In this document: piece by piece, positions 2,908 to 22,052 of the stretch
How the letters are laid out: every line of letters begins with the position of its first letter
How positions within the stretch are numbered: the stretch's first letter is position 1
IMG/VR virus record: IMGVR_UViG_2657245448_000004
Length of the DNA stretch: 22,461 bases
Origin: a virus
Taxonomy: Duplodnaviria; Heunggongvirae; Uroviricota; Caudoviricetes
Reading direction: 5' to 3' (one strand)
Notes under the pieces: model-generated
What the model was told of the DNA's origin: nothing
What the model saw: only the letters and a program-made list of their open reading frames with translations
The model's database searches: none
Position numbers and translations under genes: made by a program

Positions 2908-3074
2908 ACTGTGGTCCTCGCTACAAGGAGAATGAAAGTGATGATCAGACCGAGCGCAGTGGCAACGGCCAGACCGGTCATCAAATCGAAGTTTTTACGG
3001 CGATAACGGAGAACATCGCGCCCCGTCAGTCGATAGAGGTGTTCAGGTTTCATCGGTTGTATTCCTTTTTTCAT
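2904..3074 (-). CDS. small membrane protein (56 aa), first gene of the early-left operon
   Basis: Not in the ORF track (under 60 aa). Hand translation of the minus strand: [56 protein letters not shown], with one hydrophobic C-terminal helix. Its TGA stop overlaps the ATG of the 2005..2907 gene, suggesting translational coupling. Confidence 0.45.
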   Translation of the reverse strand: MKKGIQPMKPEHLYRLTGRDVLRYRRKNFDLMTGLAVATALGLIITFILLVARTTV

Positions 3075-3110
3075 ATCGGGGAGCGCGCTGTTGCGAGTGC
3101 GCTTTCAGAC

Positions 3111-3138
3111 ATAAAAAAGCCCGTCATTTGCGGCGGGC
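3111..3138 (-). terminator. putative intrinsic terminator (minus strand) upstream of the early-left operon
   Basis: Hairpin GCCCG...CGGGC at 3119..3138, followed on the minus strand by a 6-nt U-run (plus-strand A-run 3113..3118). Confidence 0.4.
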
Positions 3139-3277
3139 AAAGACTACACACAGCAATTACATGGATATCATCGAGTGCCTGCTTTTAACCACATCAGGCG
3201 AGGTGGTTCTCCTTGTACCCCTACAGTGAGAAATCGTCTAATATCTCTTCACCCCTACAGTTTGAGAGAGATTAGAT

Positions 3278-3847
3278 ATGTCTGAAGAAAAAGGAATTCT
3301 TTCCCGGATAACTGAATCGTTATCCGGCGTGGGAGGAGCAATTAAAGGCGCGGTTGGAGCAGCAAGAGAGATTCAGAATCTGACTGTCGACTATGCAGTT
3401 AAAGAGAAGACGCACACCTTACTCGATAAGCTAATGGATGTTCAGATGCAGCAAATGTCGCTTCAGGAGCTGCTGATTGCGGCTAAGGAGAAAATTGTTG
3501 AACTGGAAAATGAGAAAGTAAAGCAAGAGAACTGGGCCGCTGAAGCGGCGAGCTATGAACTTTACCAGCCTATGCGGGGTACTCTGGTCTATCGCAGCAA
3601 GCTTTCTGCAGATACTGACCAATCTCCGGTTTATATTTGTCCCAATTGCTACGAGCAAAAGAGAAAATCTATATTGCAAGCGGAAGGTCTGGTTATTAAG
3701 CCAGGCCTTGGGCGAGCCGTTAATATGGTTTGTTCGCACTGTAGGGCTTCCTATCTGTTCAACCGAAATGCTTTAGAGGCCAGACTGCCTGCTGAAGATG
3801 AAAATCCGGGGAAGGCAATCACGGATTACGATCCTTACAACCAGTAA
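3278..3847 (+). CDS. hypothetical protein: Gly-rich N-terminus, coiled-coil, C-terminal zinc-ribbon-like CxxC...CxxC; candidate accessory/defence gene
   Basis: 189-aa ORF with a GA-rich SD-like stretch (GAGAGAGA) just upstream of the ATG. Heptad-like charged segment around residues 40-90; CPNC at residues 121-124 and CSHC at 152-155. Opposite strand to both neighbours and convergent with the repressor gene. Confidence 0.75.
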   Translation: MSEEKGILSRITESLSGVGGAIKGAVGAAREIQNLTVDYAVKEKTHTLLDKLMDVQMQQMSLQELLIAAKEKIVELENEKVKQENWAAEAASYELYQPMRGTLVYRSKLSADTDQSPVYICPNCYEQKRKSILQAEGLVIKPGLGRAVNMVCSHCRASYLFNRNALEARLPAEDENPGKAITDYDPYNQ

Positions 3848-3896
3848 TTTCTTTAAGCATGGGTACCCTTCCGGCCACCCAGAGTTAAAGGAACTA

Positions 3897-3925
3897 AGCG
3901 CCCCATCGTCGGGGCGTTTCAACTT
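3897..3925 (+). terminator. putative intrinsic terminator for the 3278..3847 gene
   Basis: 6 to 8-bp GC-rich stem (cgcccc / ggggcg, loop atcgtc) followed by TTTC, about 50 nt after the stop codon. Confidence 0.4.
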
Positions 3926-4154
3926 GCGTGACTTATCAGTTCGTCGCGGTGTTGTCCTCTACGCTTACCGTACGCATACGGACTCGGCGCTTACCTCGAT
4001 CCCATCGGGTGCCATTTCATTTTGCCAGGAGTACTGCGGCTTACCTGTCACGCGGTTCAGTTTGTTAAAGAGCTGGTATTAAAAAACGCATTAATTATGC
4101 GGTATCGTATTTATATGCGTTATGGGATTTTGCGTCAATACGAAAATGAATTAT

Positions 4155-4192
4155 TTTGCAAATAAGAAAACCGCCCTTGTGGAGAGCGGTTT
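4155..4192 (-). terminator. putative intrinsic terminator downstream of the repressor gene
   Basis: Stem aaaccgc / gcggttt (4168..4174 with 4186..4192), 11-nt loop, followed on the minus strand by a T-rich tract (TTTCTTATTT); about 30 nt past the repressor stop. Confidence 0.45.
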
Positions 4193-4222
4193 GATCAGAA
4201 GTAAGTTATCAGACTGTAAAGG

Positions 4223-4897
4223 TTAGTACATGCGTAGCGCGGATTTGGCGATCCCCGCCACGTAATGGATTTTTTCAATGTTTTCGCGTGGTACTCTGAC
4301 TGGTGGATGATCTTCATTTACAGACATTAGATGGAACAGGCCATCGCGTTCGAACAAGAAGGTTTTAACCATGACCTCACCGTCCCGGGTAACCACAAGT
4401 ACTTCATCACCAGGAGTGTAGTCGTGGTTGGGTTCGACGATTACGAACTCACCCTCTTTGATTCTAGGCATCATTGAATCACCAACACATTTCAGGGCGT
4501 ATGCATCTTCATCCTTTGTCGGCCAGTATATGAAACCATCACTGCTACCTACTGAATATTGGGTGTCGCTCCAAAGTCCTCCAACGCCTAGCTGAGTGTT
4601 TCCCAAAACAGGTACTTTATTAAACCTAAGAGAAATATACGTTTTTATACCCGTCGCGTCCTCTTTCTCCATTTCTTGAAGGCTCCTTTCTGCCAGGTCT
4701 ATTGGTGACACGTGGAAGTAGTCGGCGATCTGCTTTAACGTTGCGTATTTCGGATCTTTCACCTCTCCTGATACCAGCCTGTGTAGCGTTGGTTGGTTCA
4801 GTTGTAACCGACGTGCCAGCTCAGTTATCGAGCTTATCTTGGCTTTGTCCATCAGGTACTTGATGTTTTGAGAAAGGATATCGGTAGTATCAATCAT
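4223..4897 (-). CDS. CI-like repressor (N-terminal HTH, C-terminal S24/LexA-type peptidase domain)
   Basis: 224-aa ORF. N-terminal HTH-like segment (SSITELARRLQLNQPTLHRLVSG) and C-terminal autocleavage-type domain with Ser/Lys motifs (CVGDSMMP ... EVMVKTF). Divergent from a Cro-like gene. Confidence 0.9.
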   Translation of the reverse strand: MIDTTDILSQNIKYLMDKAKISSITELARRLQLNQPTLHRLVSGEVKDPKYATLKQIADYFHVSPIDLAERSLQEMEKEDATGIKTYISLRFNKVPVLGNTQLGVGGLWSDTQYSVGSSDGFIYWPTKDEDAYALKCVGDSMMPRIKEGEFVIVEPNHDYTPGDEVLVVTRDGEVMVKTFLFERDGLFHLMSVNEDHPPVRVPRENIEKIHYVAGIAKSALRMY

Positions 4898-5038
4898 TTG
4901 GATTCATCCATGTTGTATACAGGGACGGTGATTATGCGTTATCGGATATTTTAATCCAGGATGATATAGAATTGCCGTATTGCTGAATAATCCGTTTTCG
5001 TATAAATTTGCGCTATAGACGAAAGTGGAGACTTAAAT
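4898..5038. promoter_or_regulatory. immunity switch region with divergent promoters and operator-like repeats
   Basis: 141-bp AT-rich gap between the divergent repressor and Cro-like genes. Similar motifs TATAGAATTGCCGTAT (about 4964..4980) and TATAAATTTGCGCTAT (about 5001..5017); SD GGAG at 5027..5030 ahead of the Cro ATG. Exact -35/-10 elements not resolved. Confidence 0.5.
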
Positions 5039-5239
5039 ATGTCCGGACTAACACCACAAGAGATGGTCAAAAGCTTGATTGATTCAGGGTATACCCAAAA
5101 CCAAATTGCCGAAATTGCAGGCGTGAAGCAGTCTTCTATTAGTCGGCTTCTCACCGGGGTTCATTCTGACCCTCGCTTTTCTACAGTACGTGCGATAGAA
5201 AAGCTTTTTCAGGAAGTGACAGCTAGACAAAAGGCGTAA
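5039..5239 (+). CDS. Cro-like HTH regulator
   Basis: 66-aa ORF with an HTH-like segment (YTQNQIAEIAGVKQSSISRLLTG), divergent from the repressor and heading the rightward operon. Confidence 0.8.
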   Translation: MSGLTPQEMVKSLIDSGYTQNQIAEIAGVKQSSISRLLTGVHSDPRFSTVRAIEKLFQEVTARQKA

Positions 5240-5242
5240 CCC

Positions 5243-7504
5243 ATGTCTGATAACAAACCATGGGGAGCTACGCCCGATGAGTGGTTCCACTTCGATCTGG
5301 TGTTGGGGATGACAGACAGGCTTTTACCTGTGGTGTCCAATCCCTGTGCAGAACTGTCGCCTAATAGCAAGCTGTCTCATAATTTCGGCAAAACCCCCAG
5401 TCGCTACAATGGCCAACGTAAGGTTGTTGGTATCCCCGACTGGGCTAACTATGTTGTTACGGAAAACGATTTTGCCCGGTGGTCGAACGAACCCGATTAC
5501 GGTATTTGCGTTCGTACTGGCGACGGGGTGGTGGCTCTGGACTGCGATATCAATGACGCCGGGATGCAGGAGATCGTACGCAATATTATCCTGTCATGCC
5601 TGGGGGAACTTCCGCCACGTCGCTGGCGGGCTGACAGTCATAAATGCCTGTACCTGATTGCTGTTGATGGCGACTACCGTAAACGTGGTCACCGCCTGGA
5701 AGGCGAAAACAAACAAATAGAGCTGCTCGCTAAGGGCCAGCAGTTTGTGGCTTGTGGTACCCATCCGGCAGGCGAACGTATTCAGTGGGACTGCGGTCTG
5801 CCCGGCGAACCTCTGAAAATTACATCTGAACAGCTCGAAAGCCTGTGGCAGCGTCTGGCGGATAACTTACCCGTGAAAGACAGCTATACCGCAGGTGCAG
5901 GACGTCAGCGTGATCTTTCCTGTGTTGATCCTTCCGCGACAGATGATGTCGCCGACTGGCTTGACGCGAACGGGTGGACTCTGTCAGTCAGCTCTGATGG
6001 TTCCCGCAATCTGAAACCGTTTCGGGATGAGTCAGAATACAGCAACGGTTGCAGCGAAACATCCATTAAGTATTTCCCAAAAGGGACGGGGGGATTTGAA
6101 CAGGGACATTTTAAAAGCATGCACAACACCGATGCGGGGCTTACTGATGCCGACTGGCTGGAAGGCTACGGCTATACGCAATCCCTGTTCGAAGATCTCA
6201 CGGTGGTTGAAGATGGCGATAAGCCTGAATTTACCGATATTAATACAGATATGACAGCTCATTTTCTGGAACGCTTTATCTACGTCATCGAGGGTGACCA
6301 GGTATGTGATCTTAGCCGACCGCCATATCAGTGCATGATGGATATGAAGTCGTTCAAAAACCTGATGGCGCCTTACCAGTTCCCGCCAGAAGGGAAAGGG
6401 CAACCAACTCCCGCAACCAAACGGTGGATAGAGCATCGGCATAAGAAGATTGCTGAGACGACAGGCTATAAGCCCGGTGCGGGACGTATTATCGAGCGTT
6501 TCGACGGGCGGTTTGAGATAAACGAATTTTATATGCCTGAGCATCCACGTACAGCGGATACAAGTAAGGTGTCCACGTTCCTTAATCATATGGCGTATCT
6601 GGTACCTGATGCCTGGCAGCGCGAGTTTTTCATCGCCCGTCTGGGGTGGATGGTTCAGCGTCCGGAGCGTCGATGCCCGATTTCTATTCTGCATGTGGCT
6701 TCCGCACATGGTACGGGCAGAGGATGGGTCAGCCAGTTAATGGAGCGCGTGCTTGGTCCGTGGAACTGTGCTCGTACTCGCATGAAGATCCTGTGCGATA
6801 ACCAGTTCCATGACTATCTGTACAATACGCTTCTATGCACCATTGACGAGGTGCGCGAAAATGATAAGCGGTATGAGGTGAACGATAAGATCCGTGACGT
6901 GCTGACAGAACCACGGTTTGAAGTGAACCGCAAATATGGCAGCAAAAAAACGATGGATATATACACCGGCTTTCTGTTCTACACCAACCACTTTGATGCG
7001 CTGGCGCTGCCAGAGGAAGACCGACGTATCGCTGTGCTGGGGGGCCCTGACTTCGCCGCAACTGAAGAGCATTACGCCAGCCTGTACGGTGCGCTAAGCG
7101 ACAGCGACTTTATCGCCCAGGTGTACTGGTATCTGATGGGCGTTGACCTGTCTCGCTTTAACTGGCAGCGCGCCCCCGAGACGAAAGAACGCCTTCTGAT
7201 GATTGAAAGCAATAAGAGCGATGTGGAGGCTGCTCTTATTGAAATCCTGGATAATCCGCCTGTGCCAGCAATGACTTATCAACAAATTGTTAACGCAATA
7301 CTGGCAGAAGCAGGAATGGATGTAGAAATTAACCAGAAGCATATTACTCGCATTTTGAAAGAAAGAACAAAGCGGGAACCCGTACGCGTAAAAATTGACG
7401 GGTTTGTATATAGGATTTGGATTCTTGTAAAAAATAACGATTTCAGCAACGAAGAATTGCGCGAAATATATAAATCTTGCGAAATTTTGCAATCTGGATT
7501 GTAA
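5243..7504 (+). CDS. replication primase-polymerase (AEP-type N-terminus) fused to a helicase/NTPase-like C-terminal domain
   Basis: 753-aa ORF starting 3 nt after the Cro stop. N-terminal AEP-like motifs: hhhDhD (VVALDCDIND) and sGxxH (ACGTHPAG). C-terminal P-loop-like segment SAHGTGRGW about 40 aa before a Walker-B-like LLCTIDEV. Confidence 0.8.
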   Translation: MSDNKPWGATPDEWFHFDLVLGMTDRLLPVVSNPCAELSPNSKLSHNFGKTPSRYNGQRKVVGIPDWANYVVTENDFARWSNEPDYGICVRTGDGVVALDCDINDAGMQEIVRNIILSCLGELPPRRWRADSHKCLYLIAVDGDYRKRGHRLEGENKQIELLAKGQQFVACGTHPAGERIQWDCGLPGEPLKITSEQLESLWQRLADNLPVKDSYTAGAGRQRDLSCVDPSATDDVADWLDANGWTLSVSSDGSRNLKPFRDESEYSNGCSETSIKYFPKGTGGFEQGHFKSMHNTDAGLTDADWLEGYGYTQSLFEDLTVVEDGDKPEFTDINTDMTAHFLERFIYVIEGDQVCDLSRPPYQCMMDMKSFKNLMAPYQFPPEGKGQPTPATKRWIEHRHKKIAETTGYKPGAGRIIERFDGRFEINEFYMPEHPRTADTSKVSTFLNHMAYLVPDAWQREFFIARLGWMVQRPERRCPISILHVASAHGTGRGWVSQLMERVLGPWNCARTRMKILCDNQFHDYLYNTLLCTIDEVRENDKRYEVNDKIRDVLTEPRFEVNRKYGSKKTMDIYTGFLFYTNHFDALALPEEDRRIAVLGGPDFAATEEHYASLYGALSDSDFIAQVYWYLMGVDLSRFNWQRAPETKERLLMIESNKSDVEAALIEILDNPPVPAMTYQQIVNAILAEAGMDVEINQKHITRILKERTKREPVRVKIDGFVYRIWILVKNNDFSNEELREIYKSCEILQSGL

Positions 7505-7770
7505 AAAGGTGACGGCTAGGTGACGGCAAAACGCTTAAGCGTCACCTTAAAAAGTATATATAAAACAATGGGAAATGTGCTAAAGGTGACAGGTGACGGC
7601 AGAATTTAAAACTATATACGCGATAGTGTGTATTTTAGGTATTATACGATCGCTTATATATAGAGAACTAAAATCAACCGTCACCTGTCACCTAAAACAT
7701 CTTCAGGCCTTATATGGCGCGCTTTGCAGCAGGTGACGGATATGTAATTACGCGTCACCTAGCCGTCACC
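7505..7770. repeat. iteron array flanking an AT-rich core; putative replication origin
   Basis: About ten copies of the core GGTGAC(G/A)G in both orientations: direct at 7507..7517, 7518..7528, 7583..7592, 7591..7601, 7731..7740; inverted at 7539..7548, 7678..7693 (two copies), 7751..7760, 7761..7770. They flank a strongly AT-rich stretch (about 7549..7677) immediately after the primase gene. Confidence 0.7.
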
Positions 7771-7819
7771 CGGAAATTAACTTGAAAAAATTAGCAAATA
7801 ACTAAATGAGGATACGACG

Positions 7820-8110
7820 ATGTCAAAGATATTCCGCCAATGTATGCCTTACGGTATCCGCAAAACAGCTGAGGGGGCTTGGGAAGCATTCAACAGAGAC
7901 TACCAGCCCTTAGGGGAGGCTTTTTTCTTCAAAAGAGCACTAACGCAGGCCACTCGAGATGTGTTGGCGCCACCGCCGGTAACTCAGCGCGACGACTGTG
8001 TATGGCTGTATAGCGATATCGAGCACCCGATGCACTCTGAGGCTTACTGGAAAGCGTATTGCCAGCGGCTTAAACATCTTTCTAACCTCAAAATGAAAGA
8101 TGAACGGTAA
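7820..8110 (+). CDS. hypothetical protein upstream of the Q antiterminator
   Basis: 96-aa ORF with SD GAGGA at 7808..7812, in the position that Nin-region genes occupy in lambdoid phages. No recognisable motif. Confidence 0.55.
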   Translation: MSKIFRQCMPYGIRKTAEGAWEAFNRDYQPLGEAFFFKRALTQATRDVLAPPPVTQRDDCVWLYSDIEHPMHSEAYWKAYCQRLKHLSNLKMKDER

Positions 8111-8135
8111 GTAGCAAAACGTAGAGGTCAGAGCT

Positions 8136-8558
8136 ATGCGTGATATTCGACTGGTTTTAGAGCGATGGGGGGGCTGGGCTGCGAGCGAAGGTTGCAGTGT
8201 CTACTATCCACCTGTTTCCGCTGGATTTAAGAATCTGCTACCTGCAACGCAAGCCGGGCGGCTGAAGTGCAGTGACAATGACGGTCTGATCATCAGCTCT
8301 GCTATGAACTGCCTGAAGAAAAAAGATCCGTACCTGTGTACGCTCCTTGAGTGGCATTACATCCAGGCGATGCCTGTGAGGGCTATGGGTGTGAAGCTCG
8401 GCGTATCACACACTCAAGTTCTGAAGAGGCTCCAGGCTGCAGAGGGATTTATCGACGGCTGCCTGGCTATGCTGGACGTGGTTCTGGAAATGGATCAAGC
8501 AGTTCAGTCAAAGCCTAAGGCTATCAGGACTTTGCGAAGGAGCTGCCCGGCGGCATAA
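8136..8558 (+). CDS. Q: late-gene antiterminator, Q-like
   Basis: 140-aa ORF. N-terminus MRDIRLVLERWGGWAASEG and the QKAEGFIDGCLAMLDVVLEMD segment match my recollection of the prophage Q antiterminator family. It lies directly upstream of the lysis cassette with an intervening regulatory region. Confidence 0.75.
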   Translation: MRDIRLVLERWGGWAASEGCSVYYPPVSAGFKNLLPATQAGRLKCSDNDGLIISSAMNCLKKKDPYLCTLLEWHYIQAMPVRAMGVKLGVSHTQVLKRLQAAEGFIDGCLAMLDVVLEMDQAVQSKPKAIRTLRRSCPAA

Positions 8559-8990: not shown

Positions 8991-9090
8991 TATTCAGGGC
9001 CCACCGAAGGACGGCTCATAACCCAATCCTACGGGCGTATACGCAGGGCCCGCCTTTCAACAACACCCCGTAATGGCGGAGGTGGGAAGT

Positions 9091-9432
9091 ATGAAAATGC
9101 ACAATGCTCCTCATTCCTGGCCTGACTTACTGGAACTCTTACAAAGTTGGTGGCGTGGAGATACGCCGTTGGGCGCAGTGGTTATGTCAATTGTTATGGC
9201 TGGCTTGCGCATTGCCTATTTTGGCGGTGGCGGCGGCTGGAAACGAAAAACGCTTGAGATTTTGCTCTGTGGTGCTCTGACGCTGACTTTTGCATCCGCT
9301 CTTGAGTATGTCGGATGGCCTAAATCGCTTTCTGTTGCCATTGGTGGTGGTGTTGGGCTGATCGGTGTCGATGCTATTCGTGGGGCTGCAATGCGAGTAA
9401 TCGGTAACAAGTTTGGTGGCTCTAAGGAGTAA
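9091..9432 (+). CDS. S: holin with lambda S-like dual-start (MKM) motif
   Basis: The ORF track starts at 9073, but a strong SD (GGAGG, 9078..9082) sits 8 nt ahead of the ATG at 9091. The product then begins MKMHNAPHSW, as lambda S begins MKMPEKHDLL (from memory), and has hydrophobic TM segments. It ends 3 nt before the endolysin gene. Confidence 0.8.
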   Translation: MKMHNAPHSWPDLLELLQSWWRGDTPLGAVVMSIVMAGLRIAYFGGGGGWKRKTLEILLCGALTLTFASALEYVGWPKSLSVAIGGGVGLIGVDAIRGAAMRVIGNKFGGSKE

Positions 9433-9435
9433 TTC

Positions 9436-9912
9436 ATGCAGACACTAAATTCCCAACGTAAAGCTTTCCTGGATATGGTGGCATGGTCAGAAGGAACGGA
9501 TAACGGGCGACAACCGACACGTAATCACGGTTATGACGTTATCGTCGGAGGTGAGTTGTTCACTGATTACTCCGATCACCCTCGCAAACTTGTCACGCTA
9601 AACCCGAAGCTTAAATCAACAGCCGCAGGCCGGTATCAGCTTCTTTCACGCTGGTGGGATGCCTACCGCAAGCAGCTTGGCCTGAAAGATTTTTCGCCAG
9701 AAAGTCAGGACGCTGTGGCGCTGCAGCAGATTAAAGAGCGTGGCGCTTTACCGATGATTGACCGTGGCGATATTCGTCAGGCAATCGACCGTTGCAGCAA
9801 TATCTGGGCGTCGTTACCTGGTGCAGGTTACGGTCAGTATGAACATAAAATCGGTGACCTGATTTCCAGGTTTAAAGATGCTGGTGGGGTGGTAAATGAA
9901 GCTGACTTATAA
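9436..9912 (+). CDS. R: endolysin, lambda R-like lytic transglycosylase
   Basis: 158 aa, same length as lambda R and near-identical over long stretches as I recall it (NSQRKAFLDM.AWSEGTDNGRQ.TRNHGYDVIVGGELFTDYSDHPRKLVTLNPKLKST.AGRYQLLSRWWDAYRKQLGLKDFSP). SD AAGGAG upstream. Confidence 0.95.
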   Translation: MQTLNSQRKAFLDMVAWSEGTDNGRQPTRNHGYDVIVGGELFTDYSDHPRKLVTLNPKLKSTAAGRYQLLSRWWDAYRKQLGLKDFSPESQDAVALQQIKERGALPMIDRGDIRQAIDRCSNIWASLPGAGYGQYEHKIGDLISRFKDAGGVVNEADL

Positions 9913-22038: not shown

Positions 22039-22052
22039 NTNNAGACNGCNNN
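22039..22052. other. cluster of ambiguous bases (N) next to an EcoRI site; possible assembly or cloning junction
   Basis: Seven N calls at 22039, 22041, 22042, 22047 and 22050..22052; GAATTC at 22032..22037 immediately upstream. Coding character changes across this point. Confidence 0.9.

Follow-up and report, generated by a model that had tools for sequence, protein, structure and literature searches.

A ten-site dyad array directly downstream of a PrimPol/SF3-helicase gene is the probable replication origin of a temperate Escherichia coli phage and its relatives

In SaPI/PICI satellites the replication origin lies immediately 3' of the ORF for the initiator-helicase (Ubeda et al. 2007, 2012; Fillol-Salom et al. 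2018, PMC6092414; PMC9371898). Its 6-12 short iterons fall into two sets, one to each side of a central AT-rich region, and at least two iterons per side point in opposite directions (PMC6092414; PMC9371898). For the SaPI Reps, binding of a C-terminal winged helix to the iterons 3' of rep was shown experimentally (Qiao et al. 2022, PMC9371898), and the Rep is a self-loading hexameric helicase which can be fused to the primase (PriRep5) and whose specificity varies between elements (PMC6092414; PMC9371898). On our best reading, this SaPI/PICI pri-rep-ori is the closest described arrangement to the locus reported here, which belongs to a full-size temperate phage. In phage lambda the iterons are inside the O gene and O recruits the host DnaB through P; across lambda, phi80, 82 and P22 the DNA-binding part of O and its sites co-vary and are inherited together. 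SV40 large T antigen and papillomavirus E1 are SF3 helicases with their own origin-binding domain, which use inverted site pairs and assemble two hexamers. O-ori complexes are also on record for Stx phages (PMC7466680), and a further Stx-phage replication type, Eru10, is defined by cI, a PF09250 primase-polymerase protein and Q (Fagerlund et al. 2022, PMC8951638). The Eru10 paper (PMC8951638) classifies gene content only and mentions neither 'origin of replication' nor 'iteron', and a literature search found no paper that pairs DUF5906 with iterons.

The window, by which we mean the whole 22,461-nt stretch analysed (IMG/VR virus record IMGVR_UViG_2657245448_000004), is part of a 42.7-kb temperate phage with a lambda-like gene order: CI, an S24 repressor (4223-4897, minus strand), Cro (5039-5239), the replicase, the site array, a 96-aa ORF (ORF96), Q and the lysis genes. 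The leftward operon codes for a DEAD helicase, a VRR-NUC nuclease, a DNA polymerase, DUF2815 and DUF2800. As in the Eru10 type, the only replication gene between cI and Q is the PF09250 replicase; the order replicase-array-Q is common to all loci that we compared, and in the prophage of E. coli STEC435 (L003) stx2b directly follows Q. The 501 bases around the array (7400-7900) are 100% identical to those of the induced E. coli phages vB_EcoM-606R2, -689R2, -611R5 and -683R1; these phages are 33-43 kb in size, with genes for terminase, head, tail, lysis and DNA polymerase. A search of complete E. coli genomes matched the array region in 45 of 5,426, always in the chromosome and in one copy per genome. 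A few non-ACGT bases are present at 22039-22052 of the window.

The array is real and highly non-random. Ten GGTGAC sites lie within 7507-7771 (7508-7770 for the hexamer itself), in a region (7505-7819) without any ORF of at least 50 aa. The 22.4-kb window has 25 copies of the hexamer, and shuffled sequence has 9.4 +/- 2.8 (0 of 100 shuffles reached 25); the array is the hexamer's sole cluster in the whole 42.7-kb phage (background 0.16 sites per 263 nt, Poisson P ~3e-15). The flanking bases extend the hexamer to a 9-mer site, A-GGTGAC-(G/A)G. The first-pass annotation had described about ten copies of GGTGAC(G/A)G in both orientations; the ten GGTGAC sites are there, but only 8 of them match that longer motif, the other two (7539-7547 and 7752-7760, minus strand) reading GGTGACGC. 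Site 1 begins 4 nt past the replicase stop codon at 7504, so that the array does lie directly 3' of the primase/helicase gene, as had been proposed. Sites 1 (7507..7515), 2 (7518..7526), 5 (7591..7599) and 8 (7731..7739) on the plus strand and site 6 (7678..7686) on the minus strand all read AGGTGACGG; site 4 (7584..7592, plus strand, with a 2-nt overlap with site 5) and site 7 (7685..7693, minus strand) read AGGTGACAG; sites 3 (7539..7547) and 9 (7752..7760), both on the minus strand, read AGGTGACGC; and site 10 (7763..7771, minus strand) reads GGGTGACGG.

The orientations of the sites are mirror-symmetric (+ + - + + followed by - - + - -) about a two-fold axis near 7639, and the centre-to-centre spacings are 11, 22, 44, 7, 88, 7, 45, 22 and 11 bp. 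Given the arm spacings of 11, 22 and 44 bp, the sites of each arm would be separated by roughly integral numbers of helical turns and share one face of the helix. The inner site pairs are the exception to this phasing, as their members overlap and are 7 bp apart; the pairs at 7584-7599 (+,+) and 7678-7693 (-,-) point toward each other and are kept in nearly all of 20 relatives. Tandem Repeats Finder reported only the 11-bp pair made by sites 1 and 2. We also observed that two 16-bp palindromes of the form TTGC-N8-GCAA, at 7477-7492 (TTGCGAAATTTTGCAA) and 7782-7797 (TTGAAAAAATTAGCAA), bracket the array at about 153 bp from the dyad centre; the left one sits in the last replicase codons, and the right-side one is perfect in relatives (TTGCAAATATTTGCAA, TTGCAGAAAACTGCAA). 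The pattern TTGC-N8-GCAA is not enriched in the window, where it occurs 15 times against 14.6 expected.

Between the inner pairs, with five sites on each side, lies an AT-rich core (7600..7677) which we presume to be the unwinding element. By nearest-neighbour energies, no other 80-bp duplex in the window is as unstable as 7600-7679 (dG -90.2; window mean -112.7, sd 5.9). An AT-rich core of about 130 bp had been claimed from the first pass; the core is present, but it measures about 78 bp, and the 130-bp low-GC zone (~7548-7677) takes in the left inner site pair and the AT-rich left spacer. The core contains an inner inverted repeat (7613-7627 and 7646-7660), and in an alignment of 13 loci two motifs within it, tATAtACGcGAGA on the left and tA.gTATATAgaaCTaaAA on the right, are kept irrespective of the type of site present. 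The hairpin potential of 7580-7700 has a z-score of -7.3, and a search of Rfam at a permissive E-value returned only microRNA-hairpin noise far under gathering scores, which we attribute to the dyad symmetry of the array. Cumulative GC skew over the whole phage tracks the direction of transcription and makes no turn at the array.

The replicase gene (5243..7504, plus strand) encodes a 753-aa protein with an AEP Prim-Pol domain, a D5-like SF3 helicase (DUF5906) and a C-terminal predicted winged helix, the first two matching PF09250 (E 3e-7) and PF19263 (E 6e-14) in Pfam. In a sequence search of the PDB, NrS-1 alone was matched, through the helicase part (primase-helicase 6K9C, E 4e-8); among solved structures NrS-1 (6K9C, 6K9E) is the closest and alone is related in sequence, and it has the same PrimPol-SF3-C-terminal order. 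An AF2 model of aa 416-753 (pLDDT 89.5) resembles 6K9C by fold (E 9e-17), and its other fold matches include ASFV PrimPol, MPXV E5/VACV D5, SaPI5 PriRep (7OLA, E 3e-9) and the DNA-bound SaPI1 Rep (7PDS). The C-terminal domain (aa 640-753, codons 7160..7504, plus strand) matches no Pfam family; it is confidently predicted to be a winged helix (pLDDT 87.7) with a recognition helix at aa 698-709 and wing strands at aa 714-718 and 721-727. The domain is rare, with 26 representative clusters among 1.84 billion proteins, and it is C-terminal in the full-length matches. Homologues were retrieved with a full-length query and an exhaustive search, a word-indexed search with the C-terminal 154 aa having given fragments only. 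The SF3 P-loop reads HGTGRGW (6707-6727, aa 489-495), with Arg in place of the Walker-A Lys; NrS-1 has GTGKG where this family has GTGRG at the aligned position. About 60 family members, some with identities of only 30-40%, all have this Arg, which marks it as a family trait rather than a sign of decay.

The region 7505-7771 is, in our assessment, very probably the replication origin of this temperate phage, paired with the predicted winged helix of its initiator. The likeness to SaPI/PICI elements is in the layout, with the origin candidate immediately 3' of the ORF and 5 + 5 sites around an AT-rich core, and in the initiator, an SF3 helicase whose predicted C-terminal winged helix goes with model fold matches to 7OLA and 7PDS. 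The differences are also clear: the element is no helper-dependent satellite but a full 42.7-kb temperate phage that carries DNA polymerase, lysis and virion genes of its own, its primase is an AEP PrimPol, and its sites are 9-mers in a ten-site, helically phased dyad layout that is kept across genera. No sequence similarity was detectable between the window replicase and SaPI Reps.

Phage P4, with whose alpha/ori system the locus had been compared in the first-pass annotation, offers a partial parallel only. Like the window replicase, alpha combines a primase, a D5-like SF3 helicase (DUF5906 in both) and a C-terminal DNA-binding domain, the last being putative in the window protein, and P4 has octamers in both orientations outside the gene, including a ten-copy cluster directly 3' of alpha. 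The element 3' of alpha, however, is crr and not ori, so the analogy holds for the external octamers and the primase-SF3 helicase but not for the identity of the element, nor for the type of primase. Alpha, with its zinc ribbon, Toprim, D5_N, SF3 and Pox_D5 C-terminal domains, matches PF08273, PF13362, PF08706, PF19263 and PF03288, whereas the window protein matches Prim-Pol and DUF5906 only; BLASTP of the window replicase against alpha gave no significant match (E = 0.32), and the P4 origin-binding domain is absent from the fold matches of the window winged helix. P4 also needs two separate cis elements, crr (4291-4590) and ori (9086-9809), the latter 2.1 kb upstream of alpha, and crr consists of two 120-bp direct repeats behind a terminator, unlike the one dyad-symmetric, terminator-free array in the window. 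As a side observation, the type-1 repeat of P4 crr (P4 locus L026, 4291-4600), read in the alpha sense, is AGGTGAACAG, which corresponds to A-GGT-NN-CAG, the site consensus of the family described below, plus one extra base; this likeness could be due to chance, to convergence or to a very remote shared ancestor of the two binding domains.

The position of crr raises the alternative that the array is a cis accessory element, crr-like or acting in copy control or handcuffing, which the replicase binds while synthesis starts elsewhere; the P4 octamer cluster is likewise directly 3' of alpha and needed in cis with ori at a distance. We consider this improbable, because the 42.7-kb phage genome has no second site cluster and the array has an unwinding core of its own: it encloses the least stable duplex in the window, together with core motifs that do not depend on site type, and has the complete-origin anatomy seen in SaPI/PICI elements. 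With one cluster in 42.7 kb, no other candidate origin bears these sites, and the array as origin remains our preferred reading.

Compared with the lambdoid phages, the locus shares an initiator from the early rightward operon, repeated sites beside an AT-rich region, the slot between cro and Q and the co-evolution of initiator and sites. The sites nevertheless lie outside any ORF, unlike those of lambda inside O, as had been noted from the first pass, and the initiator is itself primase and helicase; no Phage_rep_O or P domain was found in the window, and a single replicase gene occupies the space between cro and the array. SV40 large T antigen and E1 resemble the window in the SF3 helicase and the two-fold symmetric inverted sites, but their binding sites are central with melting regions flanking, whereas the window sites flank a central AT-rich core, and their origin-binding domain has another fold and sits at the N-terminus.

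We compared seven E. coli loci (the window, BCE049, C11, STEC435, O121, TB06051 and B771) and 14 further loci fetched through the replicase protein, with identities to the window replicase down to 36%: Izhakiella, Erwinia, two Serratia, Klebsiella aerogenes, two Arsenophonus, two Xenorhabdus, Limnobaculum, Avibacterium and three metagenomic contigs. The arrays of diverged E. coli prophages align column for column, yet the sequence of every site differs. BCE049 has GGTGACGG, as in the window; C11, STEC435, O121 and TB06051 have GGTGGCAG; and B771 has GGTAACAG. The family consensus is A-GGT-NN-CAG, in which NN is GA, GG, AA, GT, TG or AG; each locus has one central dinucleotide in all its sites, and it varies between loci. 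The Limnobaculum site deviates (TGACACAG). In most of 20 loci, which span Escherichia, Klebsiella, Erwinia, Izhakiella, Serratia, Arsenophonus, Xenorhabdus and Avibacterium, the layout of the sites, in position and in orientation, is preserved with nearly base-pair precision while the spacers diverge freely. The standard offsets from the stop codon, signed by orientation and found in most loci, are +4, +15, -37, +81, +88, -176, -183, +228, -250 and -261 nt; offsets in L018, L020, L021, L022 and L023 are off this standard. Site 1 is at +3 to +5 in most relatives, and the canonical array begins 21-108 nt farther downstream in L018, L020 and L021. The arm spacings (11, 22, 44 and 7 bp) are strictly kept and the centre is looser, at 87-109 bp, which fits a geometric constraint on each arm-bound oligomer.

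Some of these loci are of separate interest. L018 (4841-5230) and L021 (4886-5290) have 14 and 12 sites, with the extra copies upstream of the canonical array, so site number is not fixed in the family. In L011 (Erwinia tracheiphila, 3001-5245) frameshifts split the replicase gene into three ORFs while the array has lost little, 8 of its 10 sites being exact, and the locus looks like a recently decayed prophage. L012 (5170-5500), L013 (4751-5080) and L014 (5179-5510) encode proteins with the same PrimPol N-terminal domain, a VapE-type helicase and a different C-terminus, ...RVDGKMTKAWV; directly 3' of each gene, inverted sets of repeats, each made of AGGTGG and 4-5 bases particular to the locus, surround a conserved CCCCATATATATATATAAGTCG core, which suggests the same origin logic in a second replicase type. 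The B771 and C11 prophages, both integrated beside yfhL/shoB, have an early-left operon and replicase 90-100% identical to those of the window phage; CI and Cro are shared with it by B771 only, the C11 alleles being different. In both prophages the early module is joined to unrelated virion modules, those of a lambda-like siphovirus (B771) and of a sheath/baseplate myovirus (C11).

Ten sites that agree within a genome and differ between genomes point to one sequence-specific reader, and the comparison shows the ten A-GGT-NN-CAG sites to be, judging by their sequences, the recognition sites of a single such factor. That factor is best identified as the C-terminal, predicted winged-helix domain of the upstream PrimPol/SF3-helicase. 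Over aa 1-702 the replicases of the seven E. coli loci are 99-100% identical, and they vary only at about aa 703-746, where the variation sorts exactly with site type; the patch at aa 703-733 (7349..7441, plus strand) is the sole diverged part of the replicase among the E. coli relatives, and we refer to it as the specificity patch. Site type tracks about 25 residues at the replicase C-terminus, corresponding to the end of the predicted recognition helix and the wing, both strands of which fall within the variable patch. The wing occurs as REPVRVKIDGFVYRIW, REAVKLKVDGMTVRMW and RQPTDLVKIDGMGYRFW, in the contexts ...REPVRV-KIDGFVYRIW... with GA, ...REAVKL-KVDGMTVRMW... with GG and ...RQPTDLVKIDGMGYRFW... 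with AA. Where the first strand is EPVRV, the residues after the invariant Gly are FVY/IAQ with GA and CTN/NTQ with GT. Over 20 loci, patch identity is 0.67 in pairs of the same site type against 0.45 where the types differ (reached in 0 of 10,000 label permutations), and the rest of the C-terminal 247 aa has no association with site type (0.79 against 0.77; 2,569 of 10,000 permutations).

The patch and the sites are only 60-420 bp apart, so linkage alone would make them co-segregate. The case for the winged helix as reader is therefore built on the concerted change of all ten sites, the borders of the exchanged segment, the exclusion of neighbouring genes and the position of the patch in the predicted fold. 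The DNA of the window and that of E. coli C11 show 50-90% identity between about 7350 and 7770 and 100% identity on either side, so that wing codons and ten sites form an exchangeable cassette of about 420 bp (7350..7770), which begins with the patch and ends at the final base of site 10. As to the neighbours, B771 (AA) and the window (GA) have CI 99.6%, Cro 100% and replicase aa 1-640 99-100% identical, and in this comparison of replicase, CI and Cro their differences are confined to aa 701-735 and the intergenic region; C11 and STEC435 (GG) have an ORF96 100% identical to that of the window (GA); and the Q alleles do not sort by site type. CI, Cro, ORF96 and Q were accordingly ruled out as site readers, since their alleles are shared across differing site types.

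Another phage or host protein might still read the sites, with the match of the replicase C-terminus due to linkage only. Patch and sites do adjoin and move as one recombination tract, and our comparison covered the neighbouring genes and the early-left operon of two relatives only. Even so, we judge such a reader extremely improbable: besides the four neighbours just named, the early-left proteins shared with B771 and C11 are 90-100% identical to those of the window phage, a host protein cannot account for six specificities in one host species or genus, and the variable patch falls exactly on the DNA-reading elements of the modelled winged helix. Moreover, the B771 patch recurs in Serratia and Arsenophonus, which are also of the AA type, on backbones only 55-84% identical, so patch and site type stay matched on diverged proteins.

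Taking the replicase wing as the reader, a further and more tentative proposal, which we regard as possible but rather less than probable, is that a simple recognition code, natural swaps of the ~420-bp cassette and at least six mutually orthogonal initiator/origin pairs exist on otherwise identical replicases. Under such a code, the central NN would be set by the residue triplet that follows the invariant Gly in the wing, together with one or two positions in the strand before it: FVY/IAQ would specify GA, CTN/NTQ GT, MTV/DAV GG, MGY/IGY/IAY AA, VPQ AG and KTE TG. If this is true, the orthogonal pairs would stop co-resident prophages and satellites from firing each other's origins, and they would be reusable as orthogonal inducible replicons.

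The suggestion made at first pass that the region may also hold the promoter of the Q operon found no support, as a sigma-70 scan of 7300-8200 gave nothing on the plus strand and one weak minus-strand match inside the gene; a scan of the same interval for intrinsic terminators found none. Early rightward transcription therefore probably crosses the array toward Q. One could argue from this that the array is mainly transcriptional, either as a replicase roadblock or timer for read-through into Q or as a Q-operon promoter: it lies between the replicase gene and Q, in an order conserved in all loci, and with neither terminator nor recognisable promoter, read-through from the early promoter must cross it. 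We find this very improbable, as no plus-strand promoter-like site was found, a roadblock needs no dyad two-arm layout, AT-rich core or helical phasing, and the protein that tracks the sites is a primase-helicase and not a regulator. Origin occupancy could affect Q read-through as a secondary effect.

We return to the origin reading. The first-pass proposal of an initiator-bound origin outside the initiator gene is strengthened by the concerted ten-site change that tracks the predicted wing, while DNA binding, melting and initiation at the array are inferred from analogy. Counting against the reading are the Arg at the Walker-A position throughout the family and the lack of a GC-skew signal. 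The mechanism that we propose is modelled on SaPI Rep and the viral SF3 initiators. Upon prophage induction, transcription from the Cro-side promoter would yield the replicase, whose winged-helix domains would dock on both five-site arms, and one hexamer per side would assemble around the 78-bp AT-rich core. The core would then melt and two self-loaded helicases would depart in opposite directions, with the fused PrimPol domain priming and the phage's own DNA polymerase extending. The SF3 initiators of SV40 and papillomavirus lend support to this two-hexamer picture by analogy. Being adjacent, wing codons and sites would be inherited and exchanged jointly as a specificity cassette of about 420 bp, and such exchange would give the family at least six initiator/origin specificities.

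What is new here is an unusually clean allelic series and a PICI-type origin layout in PrimPol temperate phages. The array gives a concrete origin candidate for the replication module carried by the 45 of 5,426 complete E. coli genomes and spread across Enterobacterales and Pasteurellaceae, including Stx2b-converting "Eru10" prophages; its practical weight comes from the fact that replication drives Shiga-toxin gene dosage after induction. The origin type with two iteron sets around an AT-rich core, said to be unique to PICI satellites, would thereby extend to temperate phages with an AEP PrimPol-helicase. Finally, the six site types on near-identical backbones with sharp cassette borders form a natural allelic series, which is a ready data set for how a wing may read DNA and for the building of orthogonal replicons.
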